A stretch of 64,000 nt of DNA from Escherichia coli (GTDB lineage: Bacteria; Pseudomonadota; Gammaproteobacteria; Enterobacterales; Enterobacteriaceae), in assembly GCF_016026235.1 (NCBI RefSeq), contig NZ_CP065613.1, one strand, 5' to 3'. Numbering within the stretch: position 1 is the first letter of the stretch; each line of letters starts with the position of its first letter. The translations under genes and the position numbers were made by a program. Below the pieces are notes generated by a model, which did not search any database, was not told the DNA's origin, and saw only the letters and a list, made by a program, of their open reading frames with translations. Shown piece by piece: positions 1 through 10,453 of this stretch.

Positions 1-716
1 AAACGAAAGGTGCGGGAACGACGTTCTGGATGTACACCGGCAAGGGCGATGCGTTTGCGAACCCTTTGTCGGACACTGACTGGCTGCGTCTTGCGATGGT
101 GAAGGATCTGCAACCTGGCGAAATGACCGCTGATGCAGAAGATGACACTTATCTCGATGATGAAGATGCAGACTGGAAAACGACAACCCAGGGGCAGAAA
201 TCCGTCGGTGATACTTTGGCGACGCTGGCCTGGCGTCCGGGTGACAGCGGGCAGAAAAAACTGGTTCAGTTGTTCGATTCCGGTGAAGTCTGCGCGTTTC
301 GTATCAAATACCCCAACGGTACGGTTGATGTTTTCCGTGGCTGGCTGAGTTCACTGGGTAAAACCATTACCTCAAAAGAGGTGATGACCCGTACTGTAAA
401 AATCAGCGGTGTGGGGCGTCCGTATCTGGCAGAGGAGGGCGCTGAAACCGTGGGTGTTACCGGACTGACGGTGGCACCGGCATCTGTCAGTGTCAAAGCG
501 GGAGCAACCACCACACTGACCTTTACAGTAAAACCTGACGGGGCCAGTGACAAAGCGATCAGTGTGCATTCGTCAGATCCTCAGACTGCTTCGGTGACCC
601 TGAGCGGGCTTGTGGCCACGGTGAAAGGCGTGAAGCAGGGCAGTGTCAGCATCGTGGGCATGACCTCTGACGGAGAGTTTGTGGCAGTGGCTGCGGTGAC
701 CGTCAGCGCACCATAA
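1..716 (+). CDS. V: Major tail protein V, 5'-partial (frame open to window start), with C-terminal Ig-like domain
   Basis: Translation matches lambda gpV (ANPLSD..DWLRLA..KDL.PGE...YLDDEDADW; C-terminal Big_2-like TVAPASVSVKAG...); no stop between position 3 and the listed ATG at 30. Confidence 0.9.
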   Translation, partial: TKGAGTTFWMYTGKGDAFANPLSDTDWLRLAMVKDLQPGEMTADAEDDTYLDDEDADWKTTTQGQKSVGDTLATLAWRPGDSGQKKLVQLFDSGEVCAFRIKYPNGTVDVFRGWLSSLGKTITSKEVMTRTVKISGVGRPYLAEEGAETVGVTGLTVAPASVSVKAGATTTLTFTVKPDGASDKAISVHSSDPQTASVTLSGLVATVKGVKQGSVSIVGMTSDGEFVAVAAVTVSAP

Positions 717-736
717 CAGGACGATACTCATCATTG

Positions 737-759
737 CCCCGGTTATCCGGGGCTTTTTG
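737..759 (+). terminator. GC hairpin (CCCCGG-TTAT-CCGGGG) followed by CTTTTT between V and G; possible partial terminator/attenuator
   Basis: Perfect 6-bp GC stem, 4-nt loop and T-run read directly from sequence. Confidence 0.4.
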
Positions 760-774
760 CATCCGGAGAACATG

Positions 775-1161
775 ATGTTTCTGAAACAGGATACGTTTAA
801 TTATGAAAAACAGTCCGTGGTGCTCAGTGAGCTGTCCGGGCTGCAGAGAATTGAATATCTGACGTTTGTTCAGCAGCGAACGGCAAAGTTTGATGCACAG
901 GAGGGAGAACTGCCGGAGGCTGAACGACAGATTGCTTTTCTGCGTATGGGAATGGATATCAATGCCTGGCTGGTTTCCCGCTCACTGTGGAATGCTGAGC
1001 AGTCTCAGGATGTTGAGACGCTTTGCGCATCCATTATGACAACATGGTCGTATGATGCGCTGGGCGCGGGGGCGGAGAGGGTTCTGTCGCTGAGCGGTAT
1101 GGGGACCATTGAGAATGCCGGGGATGATGATCATGAGGCGCTGACGCCGGAAAAGTCCTGA
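775..1161 (+). CDS. G: Tail assembly chaperone G
   Basis: MFLKQDTF..VVLSELSGLQRIEYL resembles lambda gpG; GGAG 6 nt upstream of ATG 775 (ATG 772 also possible). Confidence 0.85.
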   Translation: MFLKQDTFNYEKQSVVLSELSGLQRIEYLTFVQQRTAKFDAQEGELPEAERQIAFLRMGMDINAWLVSRSLWNAEQSQDVETLCASIMTTWSYDALGAGAERVLSLSGMGTIENAGDDDHEALTPEKS

Positions 1162-1499
1162 CGCGGGAAATGCAGTTTGTCATGCGGCTTGCCCGGGAGT
1201 TCCGGCGGGCAGACTGGCGGCGGATGCTGTCGGAAATGTCGGCCACTGAGCTTGGTGAGTGGGGCGATTATTTCCGGATGCAGAGCTTCAGTGATGTGTG
1301 GATGGATGCGCAGTTTGCCTCGCTGAAGGCATTGATCGTGAGAATGGTGTCCGGCAGCAGCGATGCTGCGGTGGCTGATTTCAGCCTTTTACCGGAAGAG
1401 AACGGGATACCGGAGCGAACGGACGAAGAACTGATGCATCTTGGGGAAGGTATTTCCGGAGGTGTGCGTTATGGACCAGATAGCCAACCTGGTCATTGA
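1137..1499 (+). CDS. T: T segment of tail assembly chaperone G-T; no own start, expected to be expressed by -1 ribosomal frameshift from G
   Basis: ORF in the -1 frame relative to G, open from 1137, overlapping the last 25 nt of G; same arrangement as lambda G/G-T; only A-run in the overlap is GGAAAAG at 1149-1155. Confidence 0.7.
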   Translation, partial: GADAGKVLTREMQFVMRLAREFRRADWRRMLSEMSATELGEWGDYFRMQSFSDVWMDAQFASLKALIVRMVSGSSDAAVADFSLLPEENGIPERTDEELMHLGEGISGGVRYGPDSQPGH

Positions 1500-4400
1500 T
1501 TTGGGGATTGATGCGGCAGAGTTTAAAAATGAAATTCCCCGTATCAAAAACCTTCTGAATGGTGCAGCCAGCGATGCAGAACGGTCTTCTGCCCGTATGC
1601 AGCGTTTTATGGAGCGTCAGACTCAGGCGGCCCGGCAGACAATGCAGGCGGCTTCTTCGGCTGCAACAGCAGCATCAGCCCATGCGCAGACGGTGGAAAA
1701 GAACGCACGGGCTCATGAACGCATGGCCCGTGAGGTGGAACAAACCCGTCTGCGCGTGGATGCCCTGAATCAGAAAATGCGCGAGGAACAGGCGCAGGCC
1801 AGGGCACTGGCGGAGGCGCAGGATAAAGCGGCTGCCGCCTTTTATCGCCAGATTGACAGTGTGAAACAGGCCGGTGCGGGGCTTCAGGAATTACAGCGTA
1901 TTCAGCAGCAGATCCGACAGGCCAGAAACAGTGGCGGGGTTGGTCAGCAGGATTATCTGGCGCTGATTTCGGAGATCACGGCGAAAACCCGTGCCCTGAC
2001 GCAGGCAGAGGAACAGGCCACCCGGCAGAAAGCGGCGTTTATCCGCCAGCTTAAAGAGCAGGCAACCCGCCAGAATCTGTCGTCTTCTGAGTTGCTTCGC
2101 GCCAGGGCGGCTCAGCTGGGGGTAAGCAGTGCTGCAGAAGTGTATATCCGCAAAATGGAGCGGGCAGGAAAAGCCACACATTCGCTGGGGCTGAAAAGTG
2201 CGGCAGCCCGGCGGGAGCTGGGGGTGTTAATCAGTCAGATGGCGCGCGGCAATTTTGGTGCGCTGAGGGGATCCGGGATAACGCTGGCTAACCGTGCCGG
2301 ATGGACAGGCGCACTGATGTCGCCGAAAGGCATGATGACTGGCGGCGTTATTGGCGGACTTGTCGCGGCGGTCCTGGGTCTGGGTAAAGCCTGGCATGAC
2401 GGCCGGAAGGAGGGCGAGGAATTTAACCGTCAGCTGGCGCTGACGGGACATTATGCCGGTGTCACTGTCGGGCAGTTGTGGAAACTCAGCCGGGCCATAT
2501 CCGGGAATGGTATCACGCAACATGCGGCAGCCGGTGCGCTGGCACAGGTGGTGGGCAGTGGGGCATTTCATGGAAACGATATTGGTATGGTGGCGAAAGC
2601 TGCCGCACAGATGGAGCGATCGGTTGGCCAGTCGGTCAGCGATACCATAAATCAGTTTAAGCGGCTGAAGGATGATCCTGTAAATGCCGCGAAGGCGCTG
2701 GACAATGCGTTGCATTTTTTGACTGCCACTCAGCTTGAGCAGATACGCGTCCTTGGGGAGCTGGGGCGGTCCAGTGATGCGGCCCGGATCGCCATGTCTG
2801 CGCTGGCAGAGGAAACCGGTAAACGCACATCTGATATTGATAATAATCTCAATGCGCTGGGTAGTACGCTGCAAACCTTGTCTGACTGGTGGAAGCAGTT
2901 CTGGGATGCGGCCATGAATATTGGTCGTGAAGACTCGCTGGATGCGCAGATTGATGCGTTACAGGAAAAAATTCAGCGCGCGAAAAAATATCCGTGGACA
3001 AACGCCTCCACACAGGTGGAGTACGATCAGCAGCGTCTTAACGATCTTCAGGAGAAAAAACGCCGGAAGGATTTGCAGGATGCAAAAGCGCAGGCAGAAC
3101 GGAATTACCAGGAGCAACAGAAACGCCGGAATGCTGAAAATGCCGCGCTGAACCGGATGAATGAAACGGAAGCTGCACGACATCAGCGGGAAATTGCGCG
3201 TATTAATGCCATGCAGTACGCCGACCAGGCTGTCAGGGATGCGGCGATACAGCGTGAAAATGAACGTTACGAAAAAGCCATTAAGAAAAATACACGGGCA
3301 ACCCGTAATGATGAGGCCACCCGGTTATTGCTGCAGTACAGTCAGCAGCAGGCACAGGTGGAAGGGCAGATTGCTGCTGCCAGACAGTCAGCAGGCATTG
3401 CCACTGAAAGGATGACTGAAGCGCATAAACAGCTTCTGGCCCTGCAGCAGCGCATCAGCGACCTGGACGGGAAAAAGCTGACGGCAGATGAAAAGAGTGT
3501 GCTGGCCCGTAAGAATGAGCTGATTCAGGCGCTGACGCTGCTGGATGTGAAACAGCAGGAGCTGCAGAAACAGACAGCGCTTAACGACCTGAGAAAAAAA
3601 ACGGTTCAGCTGACCAGCCAGCTGGCAGACAAAGAACGTGCACTGCGTGAGCAGCACAATCTGGATATTGCCACTGCAGGTATGGGGGATAAGCAGCGGC
3701 AGCGCTACCAGGCACAGTTGCGCATCCGGCAGGAATACCGGCAACAGTTGCAACAGCTTGAGAATGACAGTCGCCAGAAAGGCACTTACGGGACGGAGGA
3801 CTACCGGAGGGCTGAGGAGGTGCTGAAGGGGAGCCTGAAGCGACAACTGAATGAAAACAAACGCTACTGGCAGGAACTGGAAGTGGCGCAGGGCGACTGG
3901 AAAAACGGTGCCATGCGGGCGTTTCAGAATTTTACGGCGGATGCGGATAATGCGGCGGGAACGGCAGAACAGATGTTTACAGTGGCATTCAGCAGTGCCG
4001 GTAATGCACTGGCGACATTCTGTACCACCGGTAAGCTGAATTTTAAATCCTTCACCTCTTCCCTGTTGTCAGATATGGCCAGAATTATGGCACAGATGGC
4101 CATGATGCAGGCGGTAAAGGGCGTCGGTTCTTTATTCGGCTTCACGACTAATGCTGATGGCGGTGTTTACCAGTCTGCTGATTTGAGTCGCTACAGTGGC
4201 ATGGTGGTTAACCGTCCGACGTTTTTTGCTTTTGCAAAAGGCGCGGGTGTGATGGGGGAAGCGGGACCTGAAGCCATTCTGCCACTGCGTCGCGGTGCTG
4301 ATGGTAAGCTGGGGGTTGTGGCGGATACTGGTGGTTCAGGCATGGTGATGTTTGCCCCGCAGTACAACATTGAGATCAATAACGACGGCACGAACGGGCA

Positions 4401-4512
4401 GATAGGTCCGGCTGCCCTGAAGGTGGTTTATGACCTCGGGAAAAAAGCGGCCGCGGACTTTATGCAACAGCAGGCCCGTGATGGTGGCCGGTTAAGTGGA
4501 GCATACCGGTAA
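1471..4512 (+). CDS. H: Tail tape measure protein H
   Basis: N-terminus (MDQIANLVIDLGIDAAEF) and C-terminus (INNDGTNGQIGPAALK.VYD...RDGG) lambda gpH-like; long Q/A/R-rich coiled-coil centre; start assigned to ATG 1471, which overlaps the end of T. Confidence 0.9.
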   Translation: MDQIANLVIDLGIDAAEFKNEIPRIKNLLNGAASDAERSSARMQRFMERQTQAARQTMQAASSAATAASAHAQTVEKNARAHERMAREVEQTRLRVDALNQKMREEQAQARALAEAQDKAAAAFYRQIDSVKQAGAGLQELQRIQQQIRQARNSGGVGQQDYLALISEITAKTRALTQAEEQATRQKAAFIRQLKEQATRQNLSSSELLRARAAQLGVSSAAEVYIRKMERAGKATHSLGLKSAAARRELGVLISQMARGNFGALRGSGITLANRAGWTGALMSPKGMMTGGVIGGLVAAVLGLGKAWHDGRKEGEEFNRQLALTGHYAGVTVGQLWKLSRAISGNGITQHAAAGALAQVVGSGAFHGNDIGMVAKAAAQMERSVGQSVSDTINQFKRLKDDPVNAAKALDNALHFLTATQLEQIRVLGELGRSSDAARIAMSALAEETGKRTSDIDNNLNALGSTLQTLSDWWKQFWDAAMNIGREDSLDAQIDALQEKIQRAKKYPWTNASTQVEYDQQRLNDLQEKKRRKDLQDAKAQAERNYQEQQKRRNAENAALNRMNETEAARHQREIARINAMQYADQAVRDAAIQRENERYEKAIKKNTRATRNDEATRLLLQYSQQQAQVEGQIAAARQSAGIATERMTEAHKQLLALQQRISDLDGKKLTADEKSVLARKNELIQALTLLDVKQQELQKQTALNDLRKKTVQLTSQLADKERALREQHNLDIATAGMGDKQRQRYQAQLRIRQEYRQQLQQLENDSRQKGTYGTEDYRRAEEVLKGSLKRQLNENKRYWQELEVAQGDWKNGAMRAFQNFTADADNAAGTAEQMFTVAFSSAGNALATFCTTGKLNFKSFTSSLLSDMARIMAQMAMMQAVKGVGSLFGFTTNADGGVYQSADLSRYSGMVVNRPTFFAFAKGAGVMGEAGPEAILPLRRGADGKLGVVADTGGSGMVMFAPQYNIEINNDGTNGQIGPAALKVVYDLGKKAAADFMQQQARDGGRLSGAYR

Positions 4513-4841
4513 TGGAGACGTTTCACTGGAAAGTGCGCCCGGATATGAATGTGGTATCAGAGCCGAAAGTGGTGACAGTGAAGCTGGGCGATGGTTATGA
4601 ACAGCGTCGTGCGGCGGGACTGAATAACCAGTTGTCGACTTACAGCGTGACGATACGTGTTCGTAAAGGTGAACACCCATCTTTAAAAGCCTTTCTGGAA
4701 CGGCACGGTGGCGTCCGCGCATTTCAGTGGACGCCACCTTATGACTGGAAACTGATCAGGGTGGTTTGTCGTAAATGGTCGGCAAGCGTGGGGGCGTTAT
4801 GGGTGACTGTAACGGCCGATTTTGAACAGGTGGTGAACTGA
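4512..4841 (+). CDS. M: Minor tail protein M
   Basis: 109-aa ORF resembling lambda gpM; TAATG overlap with H stop. Confidence 0.9.
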   Translation: METFHWKVRPDMNVVSEPKVVTVKLGDGYEQRRAAGLNNQLSTYSVTIRVRKGEHPSLKAFLERHGGVRAFQWTPPYDWKLIRVVCRKWSASVGALWVTVTADFEQVVN

Positions 4842-5539
4842 TGCAGGATATCCGGCAGGAAACACTGAATGAATGCACCCGTGCGGAGCAGTCAGCCCGG
4901 GTGGAGCTCTGGGAAATCGATCTGACAGAGGTCGGTGGTGAGCGTTATTTTTTCTGTAATGAGCAGAACGAAAAAGGTGAGCCGGTCACCTGGCAGGGGC
5001 GGCAGTATCAGGCATACCCCATTCAGGGGTCGGGGTTTGAACTGAACGGCAGGGGCTGTGCTGCCCGTCCGACACTGACGGTCTCTAACCTGCACGGCAT
5101 GGTCACCGGTATGGCGGAAGATCTGCAGAGTCTGGTCGGCGGAACGGTGGTCCGGCGTAAGGTTTACGCCCGTTTTCTGGATGCGGTGAACTTCGTCAAC
5201 GGAAACAGCGACGCCGATCCGGAACAGGAGGTGATCAGCCGCTGGCGCATCGAGCAGTGCAGCGAACTGAGCGCGGTCAGTGCCTCTTTTGTGCTGGCCA
5301 CACCAACGGAGACGGATGGCGCGGTTTTCCCGGGGCGTATCATGCTGGCGAATACCTGTATGTGGACTTACCGTTCTGATGAGTGTGGTTACACGGGCAG
5401 GGCAGTGGCTGACGAGTTCGACAAACCAACGACGGATATCCGGAAGGACAAATGCAGCAAGTGTATGCGCGGGTGTGAGTTGCGCAACAATACCGGTAAT
5501 TTCGGCGGTTTCCTTTCCATCAATAAACTTTCTCAGTAA
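4841..5539 (+). CDS. L: Minor tail protein L
   Basis: 232-aa ORF resembling lambda gpL, Cys cluster near C-terminus; TGATG overlap with M. Confidence 0.9.
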   Translation: MQDIRQETLNECTRAEQSARVELWEIDLTEVGGERYFFCNEQNEKGEPVTWQGRQYQAYPIQGSGFELNGRGCAARPTLTVSNLHGMVTGMAEDLQSLVGGTVVRRKVYARFLDAVNFVNGNSDADPEQEVISRWRIEQCSELSAVSASFVLATPTETDGAVFPGRIMLANTCMWTYRSDECGYTGRAVADEFDKPTTDIRKDKCSKCMRGCELRNNTGNFGGFLSINKLSQ

Positions 5540-5543
5540 ATCC

Positions 5544-6287
5544 ATGACACAGACAGAATCAGCGATTCTGGCGCACGCCCGGCGATGTGCGCCAGCGGAG
5601 TTGTGCGGCTTCGTGGTGAGAACGCCGGAGGGGGAAAGATATTTTCCCTGCGTGAATATCTCCGGTGAGCCGGAGGCGTATTTCCGGATGTCGCCGGAGG
5701 ACTGGCTGCGGGCAGAGATGCAGGGTGAGATTGTGGCGCTGGTCCACAGCCACCCCGGTGGTCTGCCCTGGCTGAGTGAGGCTGACAGGCGGCTGCAGGT
5801 GCAGAGCGATTTGCCGTGGTGGCTGGTCTGCCGGGGTGAGATTCATAAATTCCGCTGTGTGCCGCATCTTACCGGGCGGCGCTTTGAGCACGGGGTGACG
5901 GACTGTTACACGCTGTTCCGGGATGCTTATCATCTGGCGGGGATTGAGATGCCGGATTTTCATCGCGGGGATGACTGGTGGCGTCACGGTCAGAATCTCT
6001 ATCTTGACAATATGGAGGTGACGGGTTTTTACCGTGTCGCACTGACAGAGGCACAGCCGGGCGATGTGCTGCTGTGCTGTTTTGGTTCATCGGTGCCGAA
6101 TCATGCCGCCATTTACTGCGGTGACGGCGGGCTGCTGCACCATATTCCTGAACAACTGAGCAAACGAGAGAGGTACACCGACAAATGGCAGCGACGCACA
6201 CACTCCCTCTGGCGTCACCGGGCATGGCGCGCATCTGCCTTTACGGGGATTTACAACGATTTGGTCGCCGCATCGACCTTCGTGTGA
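5544..6287 (+). CDS. K: Tail tip assembly protein K (JAB/MPN + NlpC/P60-like)
   Basis: MTQTESAILAHARRCAP...HSHPGG motif; start set at ATG 5544 directly after L stop, not at the upstream ORF-track start 5280. Confidence 0.85.
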   Translation: MTQTESAILAHARRCAPAELCGFVVRTPEGERYFPCVNISGEPEAYFRMSPEDWLRAEMQGEIVALVHSHPGGLPWLSEADRRLQVQSDLPWWLVCRGEIHKFRCVPHLTGRRFEHGVTDCYTLFRDAYHLAGIEMPDFHRGDDWWRHGQNLYLDNMEVTGFYRVALTEAQPGDVLLCCFGSSVPNHAAIYCGDGGLLHHIPEQLSKRERYTDKWQRRTHSLWRHRAWRASAFTGIYNDLVAASTFV

Positions 6288-6826
6288 AAACGGGGGCTGA
6301 AGCCATCCGGGCACTGGCCACACAGCTCCCGGCGTTTCGTCAGAAACTGAGTGACGGCTGGTATCAGGTGCGCATTGCCGGGCGTGATGCAGGTGAAACC
6401 GAATTGTCTGCCCGTCTTAATGAGCCGCTGGCAAATGGTGCAGTGATCCACATAGTACCGCGTCTGGTGGGAGCTAAAAGTGGCGGTGTGTTTCAGGCGG
6501 TGCTGGGGGCGGCTGTTATGGCGGTTGCTATATGGATGCCGGGGGTAGGAATTATGGCGAGTAATCTGCTGTTTTCTCTCGGTGCCAGTATGACGCTTGG
6601 CGGTGTTGCACAGATGCTGGCACCGAAAGCCAGAACTCCCCGTACACAGACAACGGATAACGGTAAGCAGAACACGTATTTCTCGTCACTGGATAACATG
6701 GTTGCCCAGGGCAATGTTCTGCCCGTTCTGTACGGTGAAATGCGCGTGGGGTCACGTGTGGTTTCTCAGGAGATCAGCACGGCAGACGAAGGGGATGGTG
6801 GTCAGGTTGTGGTGATTGGTCGCTGA
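6185..6826 (+). CDS. I: Tail tip assembly protein I
   Basis: MAATHTLPLASPGMARICLYGDLQRFG...; ubiquitin-like N-terminus and hydrophobic C-terminus typical of lambda gpI; overlaps K 3' end; alternative start at 6224. Confidence 0.8.
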   Translation: MAATHTLPLASPGMARICLYGDLQRFGRRIDLRVKTGAEAIRALATQLPAFRQKLSDGWYQVRIAGRDAGETELSARLNEPLANGAVIHIVPRLVGAKSGGVFQAVLGAAVMAVAIWMPGVGIMASNLLFSLGASMTLGGVAQMLAPKARTPRTQTTDNGKQNTYFSSLDNMVAQGNVLPVLYGEMRVGSRVVSQEISTADEGDGGQVVVIGR

Positions 6827-6886
6827 TGCAAAATGTTTTATGTGAAACCGCCTGCGGGCGGTTTTGTCGTTTATGGAGCGTGAGGA

Positions 6887-9800
6887 ATGGGTAAAGGCAG
6901 CAGTAAGGGGCATACCCCGCGCGAAGCGAAGGACAACCTGAAATCCACGCAGTTGCTGAGTGTGATTGATGCCATCAGCGAAGGGCCGGTTGAAGGTCCG
7001 GTGGATGGATTAAAAAGCGTGCTGCTGAACGGTACGCCGGTCCTGGACAGCGAGGGGAAGACAAACTTTTCCGGTGTTACGGTGGTGTTCCGCGCCGGCG
7101 AGCAGGAGCAGACACCGCCGGAGGGGTTTGAATCTTCCGGCTCAGAGACTGTGCTGGGTACGGAAGTGAAATACGACACGCCGATCACCCGGACCATCAC
7201 GTCGGCAAACATTGATCGTCTGCGCCTGACCTTCGGTGTGCAGGCACTGGTGGAAACCACCTCAAAGGGGGACCGGAATCCGTCGGAAGTCCGCCTGCTG
7301 GTTCAGATACAGCGTAACGGTGGCTGGGTGACGGAAAAAGACATCACCATTAAGGGCAAAACCACTTCGCAGTATCTGGCCTCGGTGGTGGTGGGTAACC
7401 TGCCGCCGCGCCCGTTTAATATCCGGATGCGCAGGATGACACCGGACAGCACCACAGACCAGCTGCAGAACAAAACGCTCTGGTCGTCGTACACCGAAAT
7501 CATCGATGTGAAACAGTGCTACCCGAACACGGCGCTGGTCGGCGTGCAGGTGGATTCAGAGCAGTTCGGTAACCAGCAGGTGAGTCGCAATTATCATCTT
7601 CGCGGGCGCATTCTGCAGGTGCCGTCGAACTATAACCCGCAGACGCGGCAATACAGCGGTATCTGGGACGGAACGCTTAAGCCAGCATACAGCAACAACA
7701 TGGCCTGGTGTCTGTGGGACATGCTCACTCATCCGCGCTACGGCATGGGGAAACGTCTTGGTGCGGCAGATGTGGACAAATGGGCGCTGTATGTCATCGG
7801 CCAGTACTGCGACCAGTCAGTGCCGGACGGATTTGGCGGCACGGAGCCGCGCATCACCTGTAACGCTTACCTGACCACACAGCGTAAGGCGTGGGATGTT
7901 CTCAGTGATTTCTGCTCGGCGATGCGCTGTATGCCGGTATGGAACGGGCAGACGCTGACGTTCGTGCAGGACCGACCGTCGGATAAGGTGTGGACCTATA
8001 ACCGCAGTAATGTGGTGATGCCGGATGATGGCGCGCCGTTCCGTTACAGCTTCAGCGCCCTGAAGGACCGCCATAATGCCGTTGAGGTGAACTGGATTGA
8101 TCCGGACAACGGTCATGAGACGGCGACAGAGCTTGTGGAGGACACGCAGGCCATTCTCCGTTACGGTCGTAACGTCACGAAGATGGATGCCTTTGGCTGT
8201 ACCAGCCGGGGACAGGCGCACCGCGCCGGGCTGTGGCTGATTAAAACAGAACTGCTGGAAACGCAGACCGTGGACTTCAGCGTGGGTGCTGAAGGGCTTC
8301 GCCATGTACCGGGCGATGTCATTGAAATCTGCGATGATGACTATGCCGGTATCAGCACCGGCGGGCGCGTGCTGGCGGTGAACAGCCAGACCCGGACGCT
8401 GACGCTCGACCGTGAAATCACGCTGCCATCCTCCGGTACCACGCTGATAAGCCTGGTTGACGGAAGTGGCAATCCGGTCAGCGTGGAGGTCCAGTCCGTC
8501 ACCGACGGCGTGAAGGTGAAAGTGAGCCGTATTCCTGACGGCGTTGCCGGATACAGCGTGTGGGGGCTGAAGCTGCCGACGCTGCACCAGCGCCTGTTCC
8601 GCTGTGTGAGTATCCGTGAGAACGACGACGGCACGTATGCCATCACCGCCGTGCAGCATGTGCCGGAAAAAGAGGCCATTGTGGATAACGGGGCACACTT
8701 TGACAGTGACCGGCGCGGCACGGTGAATGGTGTCACGCCGCCAGCAGTGCAGCACCTGACCGCAGAAGTCATCGCAGGCAGCGGGGAATATCAGGTGCTG
8801 GCGCGCTGGGACACGCCGAAGGTGGTGAAGGGGGTGAGCTTCCTGCTTCGCCTGACCGTGGCAGCGGATGACGGCAGTGAGCGGCTGGTCAGCACAGCCC
8901 GGACGACGGAAACCACATATCGTTTCACGCAGCTTGCGTTGGGGCGTTATACGCTGACAGTCCGGGCGGTAAATGCCCGGGGGCAGCAGGGCGATCCGGT
9001 GTCGGTATCGTTCCGGATTGCGGCACCGGCAGCGCCTGTCACTATTGAACTGATACCGGGGTATTTTCAGATAACGGCGGTCCCGAAACTGGCTGTATAT
9101 GACCCGACGGTGCAGTTTGAGTTCTGGTTTTCGGAAAAGCGGATTGCGGATATCAGGCAGGTTGAAACCACAGCCCGCTATCTTGGCACGGCGCTGTACT
9201 GGATAGCCGCCAGTATCAATATCAAACCGGGCCATGATTATTATTTTTACGTTCGCAGTGTGAACACCGTTGGCAAATCGGCATTTGTGGAGGCCGTCGG
9301 TCGGGCGAGCGATGATGCGGAAGGTTATCTGAGTTTTTATAAAGGGTTGATCAATAAAACGCATCTCGGCAAGGAGTTGTGGACGCAGATTGATAACGGT
9401 CAGCTTGCGCCGGACCTGACTGAAATCAGGACGTCCATTACGAATGTCAGCAATGAAATCACGCAAACCGTCAATAAAAAACTGGAAAATCAGAGTGCTG
9501 CAATCCAGCAGATACAGAAAGTTCAGGTTGATACAAATAATAACCTGAACAGCATGTGGGCTGTGAAGCTGCAACAGATGAAGGACGGACGCCTTTATAT
9601 TGCGGGTATCGGTGCCGGTATTGAGAATACGCCAGCAGGAATGCAGAGTCAGGTGCTGCTGGCGGCAGACAGGATTGCGATGATTAATCCTGCGAATGGC
9701 AACACAAAGCCGATGTTTGTTGGTCAGGGCGATCAGATATTCATGAACGACGTGTTCCTGAAACGCCTGACGGCTCCGACCATTACCAGCGGCGGTAATC

Positions 9801-10384
9801 CTCCGGCATTTTCCCTGACACCTGGCGGACGGCTGACGGCGAAAAATGCCGATATCAGCGGTAACGTGAACGCGAACTCCGGGACGCTCAACAACGTCAC
9901 GATTAACCAGAACTGTACGATTAAGGGCATGCTGGAGGCGACCCAGGTCAGAGGGGATTTCGTTAAAGCTGTATCAAAAGCCTTCCCGAAAAAAGTCGGT
10001 ACGTGGGGTAACACGGAAACACCAAACGGTACGGTTACAGTCACCATCAGCGATGATCATAACTTTGACCGCCAGATTATTATTCCGCCCATTATTTTTA
10101 ACGGTATAGCGTATGACGATCCGGGGAGCGGAAATAACCTAGGAGGCACGCGATACACGGGTTATGGTTTTGAAGTTCGCAAAAACGGCGTATTAATCGC
10201 ATCCAGAGAAACTAAAGGGGCCATTCCCGGTAGTTACAGTGCAGTTATTGATATGCCTAGTGGTGGTGGTAGCGTCACTCTGGAGTTTAAGATTTTCCAG
10301 AAAGGCAATCAGGGGGCAGGCAATATCACCGACTGTACGGTGATTGTGACCAAAAAAGCGGCTTCCGGCATCAGTATTCGTTGA
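6887..10384 (+). CDS. J: Host specificity (central tail fibre / tip attachment) protein J
   Basis: 1165-aa ORF, lambda gpJ-like N-terminal two thirds with FN3-like repeats, divergent C-terminus; GAGGA before ATG. Confidence 0.9.
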
Positions 10385-10404
10385 AATTGTTATAACCCAT
10401 ATAA

Positions 10405-10431
10405 GGGCACCAGAAATGGTGCCTTTTTTAT
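10405..10431 (+). terminator. Rho-independent terminator after J
   Basis: GGGCACC-AGAAAT-GGTGCC followed by TTTTTTATT. Confidence 0.6.
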
Positions 10432-10453
10432 TGCAGAAAAGCGAGAGGTAATT

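Follow-up and report, generated by a model that had tools for sequence, protein, structure and literature searches.

[quoted passage not shown] We analyzed the gene within a 64,000-nt stretch of DNA (contig NZ_CP065613.1 of assembly GCF_016026235.1), hereafter referred to as the window. Judging from sequence comparison, our observations are likely explained by a three-module J whose 434-type RBD forms one block with the J terminator and the adjacent lom gene, and which targets OmpC—as opposed to LamB—as its receptor.

An intact J gene of the lambda family

The window covers the right end of the prophage only, with its tail genes, its cargo, and the junction to the chromosome. Based on the order of open reading frames (ORFs) and on Pfam assignments for lom and stf, J lies between H-M-L-K-I on its 5′ side and the lom and stf genes on its 3′ side, matching the annotated order in E. 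coli VL7S7, lambda, and 434. The reading frames of the neighboring genes M, L, K, I, lom, and stf are uninterrupted, as is that of J itself. The J translation shares 81% amino acid identity with lambda J and 89% with 434 J; in the hub region (aa 1–600), identity to lambda J amounts to 97%. Six Pfam families—FNIII-A_GpJ, Phage-tail_3, Ig_J, Ig_J_second, Phage_Tail_Tip, and Ig_GpJ_C—scored above their curated cut-offs, in the order expected of the lambda gpJ series (hub, two Ig/FNIII domains, fiber, RBD). By its domain series, operon position, and hub identity, the protein is a member of the lambda gpJ family. The coordinates of J, its modules, and the features downstream are compiled in Table 1.

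Two minus-strand ORFs (9733–10047 and 10193–10564) were regarded as spurious: they overlap, on the opposite strand, a J frame conserved at the protein level and under purifying selection. The second of these ORFs crosses the terminator and enters lom.

Table 1 Features of the J region, in positions of the window.
Feature	Position	Strand	Basis
Gene J (tip attachment protein/central tail fiber)	6887..10384	+	Intact ORF, 1165 aa plus stop; Pfam series
Module 1: hub domains and two FNIII/Ig domains, aa 1–800	6887..9286	+	Lambda/434-like
Module 2: alpha-helical shaft and upper beta-prism allele, aa ~801–950	9287..9736	+	Not lambda-like
Conserved lower-prism segment, aa 951–1000	9737..9886	+	Common to all alleles
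Module 3: 434-type RBD, aa 1001–1165	9887..10384	+	Identity to 434, Pfam PF12421, fold
Intrinsic-terminator-like hairpin and T tract just 3′ of J	10403..10436	+	Consensus scan: 10-bp stem, T run
lom (Ail/Lom outer-membrane protein), 434-type allele	10454..11053	+	Pfam Ail_Lom, E = 1.9e-120

Modular composition of J

Across the lambda/434-like module 1, nucleotide identity ranged from 83 to 98% per 150-nt bin; relative to lambda, amino acid identity over residues 601–815 was 91% and the dN/dS ratio of the module 0.11. The first-pass annotation had described the N-terminal and central parts of J as lambda-like. This description holds up to aa ~800–815, but not for aa ~801–950, which represent a different allele with 28 extra codons that we placed within 9395–9487. 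Nucleotide identity within this second module was 42–64% to lambda and 434, and 83–95% to phage Kati; residues 816–900 shared 42% amino acid identity with lambda, at the expense of 28 gap columns. Megablast matches to 434 and lambda-h434 were broken into two pieces at module 2, and those to Kati, PhiR34_1, mEp332, Ayreon, and cdtI aligned full length across it.

The J genes of Kati, PhiR34_1, PhiR68_2, mEp332, ev243, Ayreon, and cdtI have the same three-module layout as that in the window, with 92.8–93.7% nucleotide identity at 100% coverage. Kati J shares the long shaft allele, is 98.6% identical in its RBD at the amino acid level, and differs by 49 residues over the 1165 aa. Near-identical to the window in the RBD are also the J protein of phage 434 (UMO75286.1, OL657226) and the h434 allele of lambda h434 imm21 (OM418627). 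While the N-terminal 815 aa of 434 J are 92–97% identical to the window protein, its shaft and upper prism—unlike those in the window—are lambda-like and 28 aa shorter, with 44% identity over aa 816–900.

The lower-prism segment was almost invariant in an alignment of eight RBD types, with nucleotide identities of 89%, 85%, and 88% to lambda, 434, and Kati, respectively. It probably serves as the 5′ homology arm for RBD exchange.

A receptor-binding domain of the 434 type

Within the RBD, 140 of 145 residues (96.6%) are identical to phage 434 J without a single gap, and the underlying DNA is 97–99% identical. Relative to lambda, identity over the last 145 aa was 39.6% with 17 gap columns (38–40% for the RBD overall), the indels clustering in four segments between predicted strands. 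In the bins from 9887 to 10384, nucleotide identity to lambda was 46–52%, that is, the DNA is essentially unalignable. High identity to lambda J aa ~990–1132 together with the contact loops, indicative of a lambda-type LamB-binding RBD, was absent. The GC content of module 3 is 0.476, as compared to 0.587 in module 1.

A block of ~200 aa at 9700–10384 had been annotated at first pass as divergent and as not resembling lambda. The divergence proved real, yet it is limited to ~165 aa (aa ~1001–1165), with aa 939–1000 conserved in lambda, and to deny any resemblance is too strong in light of the shared Pfam domain and gpJ fold described below.

When the C-terminal 149 aa were compared by tblastn with a set of 50,697 phage records, identities followed a bimodal distribution, with 74 records at ≥90% and 169 at ≤44%; lambda scored 35.7%. 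Because of this bimodality, the divergence between the lambda and window RBDs is not a matter of chance. In a pairwise RBD matrix, the window grouped with 434 and Kati (96.6–98.6%), and its identity to the lambda, A8/PhiR30_1, 2G7b, and Fels-1 types was 38–46%. Membership in the A8/PhiR30_1 type was not supported either, the window RBD being ~42% identical to those of PhiR30_1 and Stx2a_JNE082796 (the A8 RBD sequence was taken from the chain in PDB 9WCA, which the PhiR30_1 RBD matches). The window RBD is a 434-type (h434) allele within a discrete cluster apart from the other RBD alleles. It is under purifying selection, with a dN/dS ratio of 0.13 relative to Kati.

Pfam PF12421 (Ig_GpJ_C, the gpJ receptor-binding domain) matched aa 1029–1164 (nt 9971–10378; E = 6.7e-25). 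Structure prediction, proposed at first pass as a check on the tip domain, yielded a beta-sandwich: in an AF2 monomer model based on an 8-sequence alignment (pLDDT 74.9, moderate confidence), the four best PDB matches retrieved by Foldseek were the lambda gpJ fiber and the OmpC-bound A8 gpJ (8XCK/8XCJ and 9WCA/9WCB; TM 0.68–0.71), with E-values of about 1e-14 for 8XCK and 8XCJ. This Ig-like fold is common to all alleles and hence does not discriminate between receptors. A novel or non-homologous C-terminal domain is ruled out by the Ig_GpJ_C match, the gpJ fold, and the 434 identity.

Continuity with the J terminator and lom

Similarity to 434 extends past the end of J. The 434-like blastn segment spans 9553 to 11166, and bins downstream of J, terminator and lom included, showed 95–100% nucleotide identity to 434, as opposed to about 40–60% to lambda. 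The first 100 alignment columns past the J stop codon, which comprise the hairpin, are 100% identical to 434, and the 434 record has a terminator annotated after J. After about nt 11166, stf and tfa of 434 diverge from the window. The RBD probably arrived, or is maintained, with the J terminator and lom as one recombination block, whose 5′ bound is the lower-prism segment conserved in all alleles.

OmpC as the probable receptor

Phage 434 and a lambda hybrid with the 434 fiber use OmpC as their receptor (PMC11101478, PMC3509688; Hantke 1978, as cited in later work). Comparing lambda h434 imm21 with both parents, we located the switch from lambda to 434 inside J at about codon 711, the sequence being 434-like from there through the end of the gene. 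This hybrid alone cannot place OmpC use on the RBD, because it also carries the lom, stf, and tfa genes of 434. By homology to 434 and lambda h434, we infer OmpC to be the probable receptor of the window J. The expectation, voiced at first pass, that the RBD is not of the LamB type and probably targets a different receptor is thus supported by the sequence data; a close match to the C-terminus of lambda J, which would have refuted it, did not emerge from the alignment.

RBDs of several other lambdoid fibers provide a frame of reference. The lambda gpJ RBD (PDB 8XCJ, 8XCK, 8IYK) agrees with that in the window in family, domain order, Ig-like fold, and operon position, but differs in sequence and in its receptor, which is LamB and not OmpC (PMC11101478). 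The A8 gpJ chimera (PDB 9WCA; 9WCB with OmpC), with an RBD type found in PhiR30_1 and many Stx phages, binds OmpC, adopts the same fold as the window RBD, and shows the docking of such a domain on an OmpC trimer (PMC11338833), yet represents a separate allele of about 42% identity. For the tail fiber of the EHEC siphophage phi330, OmpC dependence was established by knockout and complementation (PMC12502783). Its lambdoid central fiber is, according to the authors, structurally akin to 434 and lambda J, but by their figures constitutes another allele, the RBDs of phi330, 434, and lambda being only 35–40% identical to one another (PMC12502783). OmpC binding arose in, or was kept by, several distinct RBD classes. 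A literature search for published receptors of the closest full-length relatives (mEp332, PhiR34/11/49, HannyBb, IdasGreatGrand) returned none, nor did a receptor assignment emerge for Kati and the other phages with its J layout.

As to the most likely mode of action, three J C-termini would, by homology, assemble into a trimeric tip, and its distal loops would dock on OmpC, itself a trimeric porin, rather than on LamB. Docking would then cause the RBDs to spread, the prism to twist, and the shaft to flip, and the tail tip would open for DNA ejection in a lambda-like manner—a triggering mechanism that we carry over, by analogy, from cryo-EM work on lambda and A8 gpJ.

Alternative explanations

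Neutral drift of a C-terminus that still targets LamB, as in lambda, is highly improbable. The Pfam domain and the fold are shared with the lambda RBD, but low amino acid identity with indels between predicted strands, DNA that is unalignable to lambda yet near-identical to 434, allele classes that are discrete rather than forming a continuum, and a 434 fiber that confers use of OmpC and not LamB all speak against it. We lend somewhat more credence, while still doubting it, to the idea of J as a relic in a defective prophage, in which a 434-type sequence persists without functional virions and its specificity has no present role. The prophage carries ipaH cargo (Pfam NEL plus LRR; annotated as ipaHa), and ipaH effector cargo is typical of domesticated prophage remnants in Shigella and EIEC. 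The window shows nothing of the prophage beyond its tail genes and cargo and the junction with the chromosome, and the J copy of E. coli VL7S7, 3 nt different, is a pseudogene with a premature stop at codon 231. However, neither J nor any other visible tail gene is disrupted in the window, and conservation at the codon level indicates purifying selection in the lineage. A relic would, moreover, concern the activity of the prophage rather than the identity of the domain, and is compatible with the OmpC explanation.

Rather unlikely, in our view, is a 434-type RBD retuned by loop-proximal substitutions and a longer shaft, such that it recognizes, instead of the OmpC of K-12, either only particular OmpC variants (e.g., from hosts of the Shigella/EIEC type) or a different general porin. 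The five substitutions that separate the window from 434 (N1046D, L1085P, I1135V, Q1137H, and G1143R, window to 434) could tune or change specificity: on the AF2 secondary structure, L1085 and G1143 lie within predicted loops, and N1046, I1135, and Q1137 occupy strand residues that flank loops. The RBD dN/dS ratio relative to 434 is 0.51, from only 8 changes. Only 7 E. coli records contain copies with ≥99% identity, CFSAN029787 and the VL strains from human stool among them; these same strains also have the identical ipaHa cargo. Selectivity of gpJ RBDs among OmpC variants is documented, with a 1A2 chimera delivering to the OmpC of EDL933 but not to that of MG1655 (PMC11338833). Against retuning, the RBD is 96.6–98.6% identical to those of 434, mEp332, PhiR34_1, and Ayreon, whose listed hosts are K-12 or related laboratory E. 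coli, and the porin switch in lambda needed several specific J mutations (PMC11101478); there is no sign of such a change here. Quite speculatively, and with little probability, the combination of a 434-type RBD (L1085 and G1143 in predicted loops; N1046, I1135, and Q1137 beside them), a shaft longer by 28 aa, and a 434-type lom might be a sub-allele fitted to the forms of OmpC found in invasive hosts of the E. coli/Shigella type, in which the longer shaft might alter the transmission from binding to tail opening.

Implications

The RBD in the window is the classical h434 allele of the textbooks, already known and widespread, and adds no new specificity. It will not surprise a specialist, because it is of this classical type and is present in about one in five complete E. 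coli genomes (about 21% carry the same combination of shaft and RBD). The finding is of little significance in itself and illustrates the swapping of receptor-binding cassettes among lambdoid prophages. It also allows a likely receptor, OmpC, to be named, which may be useful for host-range prediction or for the choice of gpJ chimeras as delivery vectors.

A lambdoid gene J with two divergent modules

The interval 9700-10384 forms the 3′ end of one unbroken ORF of 1165 codons plus stop. Its product carries the complete gpJ domain series, all above curated cut-offs (Pfam: FNIII-A_GpJ, Phage-tail_3, Ig_J, Ig_J_second, Phage_Tail_Tip and Ig_GpJ_C), with homologues of M, L, K and I encoded upstream. 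Domain content and gene order thus mark the ORF as the J gene of a lambdoid prophage, which the first-pass annotation had assumed, and the protein as a gpJ family member showing every defining feature examined. The prophage is represented in the window by its right end alone.

Features of the J region and of the adjoining prophage end
Feature	Position (nt)	Strand	Residues	Remarks
Gene J	6887-10384	+	1-1165	central tail fibre
J segment			1-600	97.0% identical to lambda J (MAFFT)
J segment			601-815	90.7% identical to lambda J (MAFFT)
J segment			816-900	42.1% identical to lambda J; longer by 28 residues (MAFFT)
J segment			901-1020	74.2% identical to lambda J (MAFFT)
J segment			1021-1165	39.6% identical to lambda J; 17 gap columns (MAFFT)
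Alpha-helical shaft and upper beta-prism	9287-9736		~801-950	allele neither lambda nor 434
Receptor-binding domain (RBD)	9887-10384		~1001-1165
Ig_GpJ_C			1029-1164	E = 6.7e-25; Pfam text 'Tip attachment protein J, C-terminal receptor binding domain'
Terminator-like hairpin	10403-10426			directly past J
Ail/Lom gene (lom)	10454-11053			downstream of J
Side-tail-fibre gene (stf)	11075-12529			prophage tail fibre N-terminal domain
DUF4376 protein	12480-13103			after stf
IpaH-type T3SS effector E3 ubiquitin ligase	13283-15046	-	587 aa	Pfam LRR_TTSS + NEL, E = 1e-76
ORF	15507-16595	-	362 aa	past GC dip
ORF	16797-19547	+	916 aa	next after 362-aa ORF

Overall, the protein is 81% identical to lambda J (NP_040600, from NC_001416; BLASTP). 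A three-way MAFFT alignment of the window, lambda and 434 J proteins yielded the regional identities in the table, and DNA identity was scored in 150-nt bins. Identity to lambda at the nucleotide level is 83-98% as far as nt 9286, drops to 42-64% over 9287-9736, returns to 89% at 9737-9886 and stays at 46-52% from 9887 to the J stop. The C-terminus had been described as unlike that of lambda over ~200 aa. The extreme C-terminus indeed differs in both protein and DNA, but the divergent stretch comprises the last ~165 aa and remains recognisably homologous to the lambda domain. The central part, described as lambda-like, is not so throughout: shaft and upper prism form another divergent module, distinct from the first and located 5′ of the interval 9700-10384 singled out at first.

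The receptor-binding domain belongs to the 434 allele class

Over its last 145 aa, window J is identical to the 434 central tail fibre (UMO75286.1 in OL657226) at 140/145 positions without gaps (96.6%; MAFFT), and the DNA from 9887 on is 97-99% identical to phage 434. When the last 149 aa were searched against 50,697 phage records (tblastn), identities were sharply bimodal: 74 records reached at least 90%, including 434, lambda h434 imm21, Kati, mEp460, cdtI and many Stx1/Stx2a/Stx2c phages, and 169 lay at or below 44%, with lambda itself at 35.7%. A pairwise matrix of representatives of each class (lambda; 434/Kati/window; A8/PhiR30_1/Stx; 2G7b/JLK-2012; Fels-1) also showed discrete alleles, the window RBD sharing 38-46% identity with all classes other than its own. 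Near-identity and discrete clustering place it in the 434 (h434) allele class. This allele is not new: its genetics are decades old, it has been sequenced in phage 434, and it is widespread in E. coli prophages. The original receptor assignment, phage 434 and protein Ib, is reportedly due to Hantke in 1978.

An AlphaFold2 model of aa 986-1165, computed from an 8-sequence alignment of allele classes (mean pLDDT 74.9, pTM 0.67), predicted an all-beta sandwich from aa ~1025 onward. The best Foldseek matches in the PDB were gpJ fibres, four entries standing far ahead of the others (E about 1e-14, TM 0.68-0.71): the lambda central fibre, closed and open (8XCK, 8XCJ), and the A8 gpJ fibre, closed (9WCA) and open with OmpC bound (9WCB). 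A PDB sequence search recovered the same four, and together these matches show that the scaffold is the conserved gpJ Ig-like RBD. Membership in the lambda LamB-binding class or in the A8 class would be compatible with this fold, which is common to both, and was rejected on identity. Presumably, window, lambda and A8 J have trimeric docking and triggering in common. Where the domain departs from the lambda RBD, it does so mostly in four stretches that carry indels and lie between predicted strands (about aa 1035-1045, 1073-1090, 1103-1113 and 1137-1148); these probably correspond to the receptor loops L1-L4 described for lambda gpJ (PMC11101478).

OmpC as the candidate receptor

Host specificity is set by the gpJ C-terminus; OmpC is the receptor of phage 434 itself, and lambda with the 434 fibre gene in place of J binds OmpC (PMC11101478, PMC3509688). 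We compared the hybrid lambda h434 imm21 (OM418627) at 624 lambda-versus-434 sites between record positions ~8000 and ~19000. Its sequence agrees with lambda as far as nt 17619, save for two isolated sites, and with 434 from nt 17637 (about J codon 711) to the J end, consistent with an h434 determinant in the 3′ portion of J. Because lom, stf and tfa of the hybrid are likewise those of 434, it leaves room, taken by itself, for a side-fibre contribution. Two fibres with other RBD alleles use OmpC as well: A8 gpJ, for which the complex has been solved (9WCB) and delivery measured (PMC11338833), and the phi330 central fibre, by knockout and complementation (PMC12502783). Given homology to the 434 fibre and OmpC use by other lambdoid fibres, we consider OmpC, with fairly high confidence, the most likely receptor of window J. 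The expectation of an outer-membrane receptor other than that of lambda thus finds support in homology, and a candidate can be named.

Between the window and 434 RBDs, 3 synonymous and 5 non-synonymous changes were counted (ratio 0.51, from numbers too small to interpret). Of the replacements (window to 434: N1046D, L1085P, I1135V, Q1137H, G1143R), those at 1085 and 1143 lie in predicted loops and those at 1046, 1135 and 1137 beside loops. Since OmpC-binding gpJ variants are able to tell OmpC variants apart, a specificity finely tuned relative to 434 is conceivable, if quite improbable. Codon comparisons gave dN/dS values of 0.11 (aa 1-815 versus lambda) and 0.13 (RBD versus Kati), which indicate purifying selection on J.

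The RBD of Escherichia phage PhiR30_1 (PV340558) matches the compared part of the engineered 'A8 gpJ 713' chain (9wca/9wcb; OmpC-bound structure released 2026), and the RBDs of many Stx1 and Stx2a phages are 98-99% identical to it. Through this match, these phages may provisionally be assigned to OmpC, too.

Distribution and prophage surroundings

Among 5,426 complete E. coli genomes searched by megablast with 9300-10384 (long shaft plus 434-type RBD), 1,163 (about 21%) contain a single place where at least 80% of the query aligns; as either module alone falls short of that share, both are present in these genomes. The nearest copies (at least 99%) comprise seven records, including VL strains, RMDEC strains, CFSAN029787 and FDAARGOS_943. 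J of E. coli VL7S7 (NZ_CM177009, 7588-11085) is 3 nt apart from window J; one of these changes introduces a stop at codon 231, and the gene is annotated as a pseudogene with an 'internal stop'. That copy adjoins potB, unlike the window site; the same allele is decaying in this related strain.

With about 470-484 aa, the side tail fibre is short; its N-terminal domain is conserved (PF08400), and the portion towards the C-terminus matched nothing in a Pfam search. Overlapping its gene by about 50 nt, the DUF4376 protein lies where a fibre assembly chaperone would be expected. Compared with lambda/434 stf and tfa, the pair shows no likeness past the N-terminus. Directly past the tail-fibre genes, the IpaH-type gene is carried as cargo. 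It is 99-99.9% identical to ipaHa-annotated loci of a few E. coli genomes (FDAARGOS_943, VL40, CFSAN029787, O121 201805972), which speaks for a background of Shigella or enteroinvasive E. coli. The prophage-chromosome junction, at ~15050-16700, is marked by a GC dip (0.394 at 15001-15500). Beyond it, the 362-aa ORF presumably resembles yacH, and the 916-aa ORF can be read as aconitase B (acnB). A single place covering at least 80% of 13100-16700 was found in none of the 5,426 genomes; the insertion context is therefore absent from them.

Mosaic structure of J and the tail operon

The 434-like block runs past the J stop codon. At the nucleotide level, hairpin and lom share 95-100% identity with 434 and about 40-60% with lambda, and the whole segment spans 9553-11166 (blastn); past about 11166, at the stf start, similarity to both 434 and Kati is lost. 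Because the block extends through hairpin and lom, the RBD and the lom allele move as a single unit. On the 5′ side, aa 951-1000 (9737-9886), kept across all alleles, may provide a homology arm for RBD exchange. GC steps from 0.587 in the hub and FNIII/Ig module (aa 1-800) through 0.51 in the shaft/prism module to 0.476 in the RBD fit cassettes of separate history.

Further upstream, 4374-9383 (M-L-K-I and the first ~830 J codons) is 88% identical to lambda and 434 DNA, and among the tube, chaperone and tape-measure genes left of 4374 the sole aligning portion is part of V (about 67%). A mosaic boundary hence lies within the tail operon, between 1-4373 and 4374-9383. At about 1013-1023 aa, the tape-measure ORF is longer than its lambda counterpart (853 aa).

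The shaft and upper-prism module, with 28 extra codons placed within 9395-9487, is 83-95% identical to Kati DNA and was found in phages matching J full length in a single piece (Kati, PhiR34_1, PhiR68_2, mEp332, ev243, Ayreon, cdtI and several Stx2 phages). As the corresponding lambda region undergoes a large rearrangement upon receptor binding (PMC11101478), variation in shaft length may have mechanical consequences.
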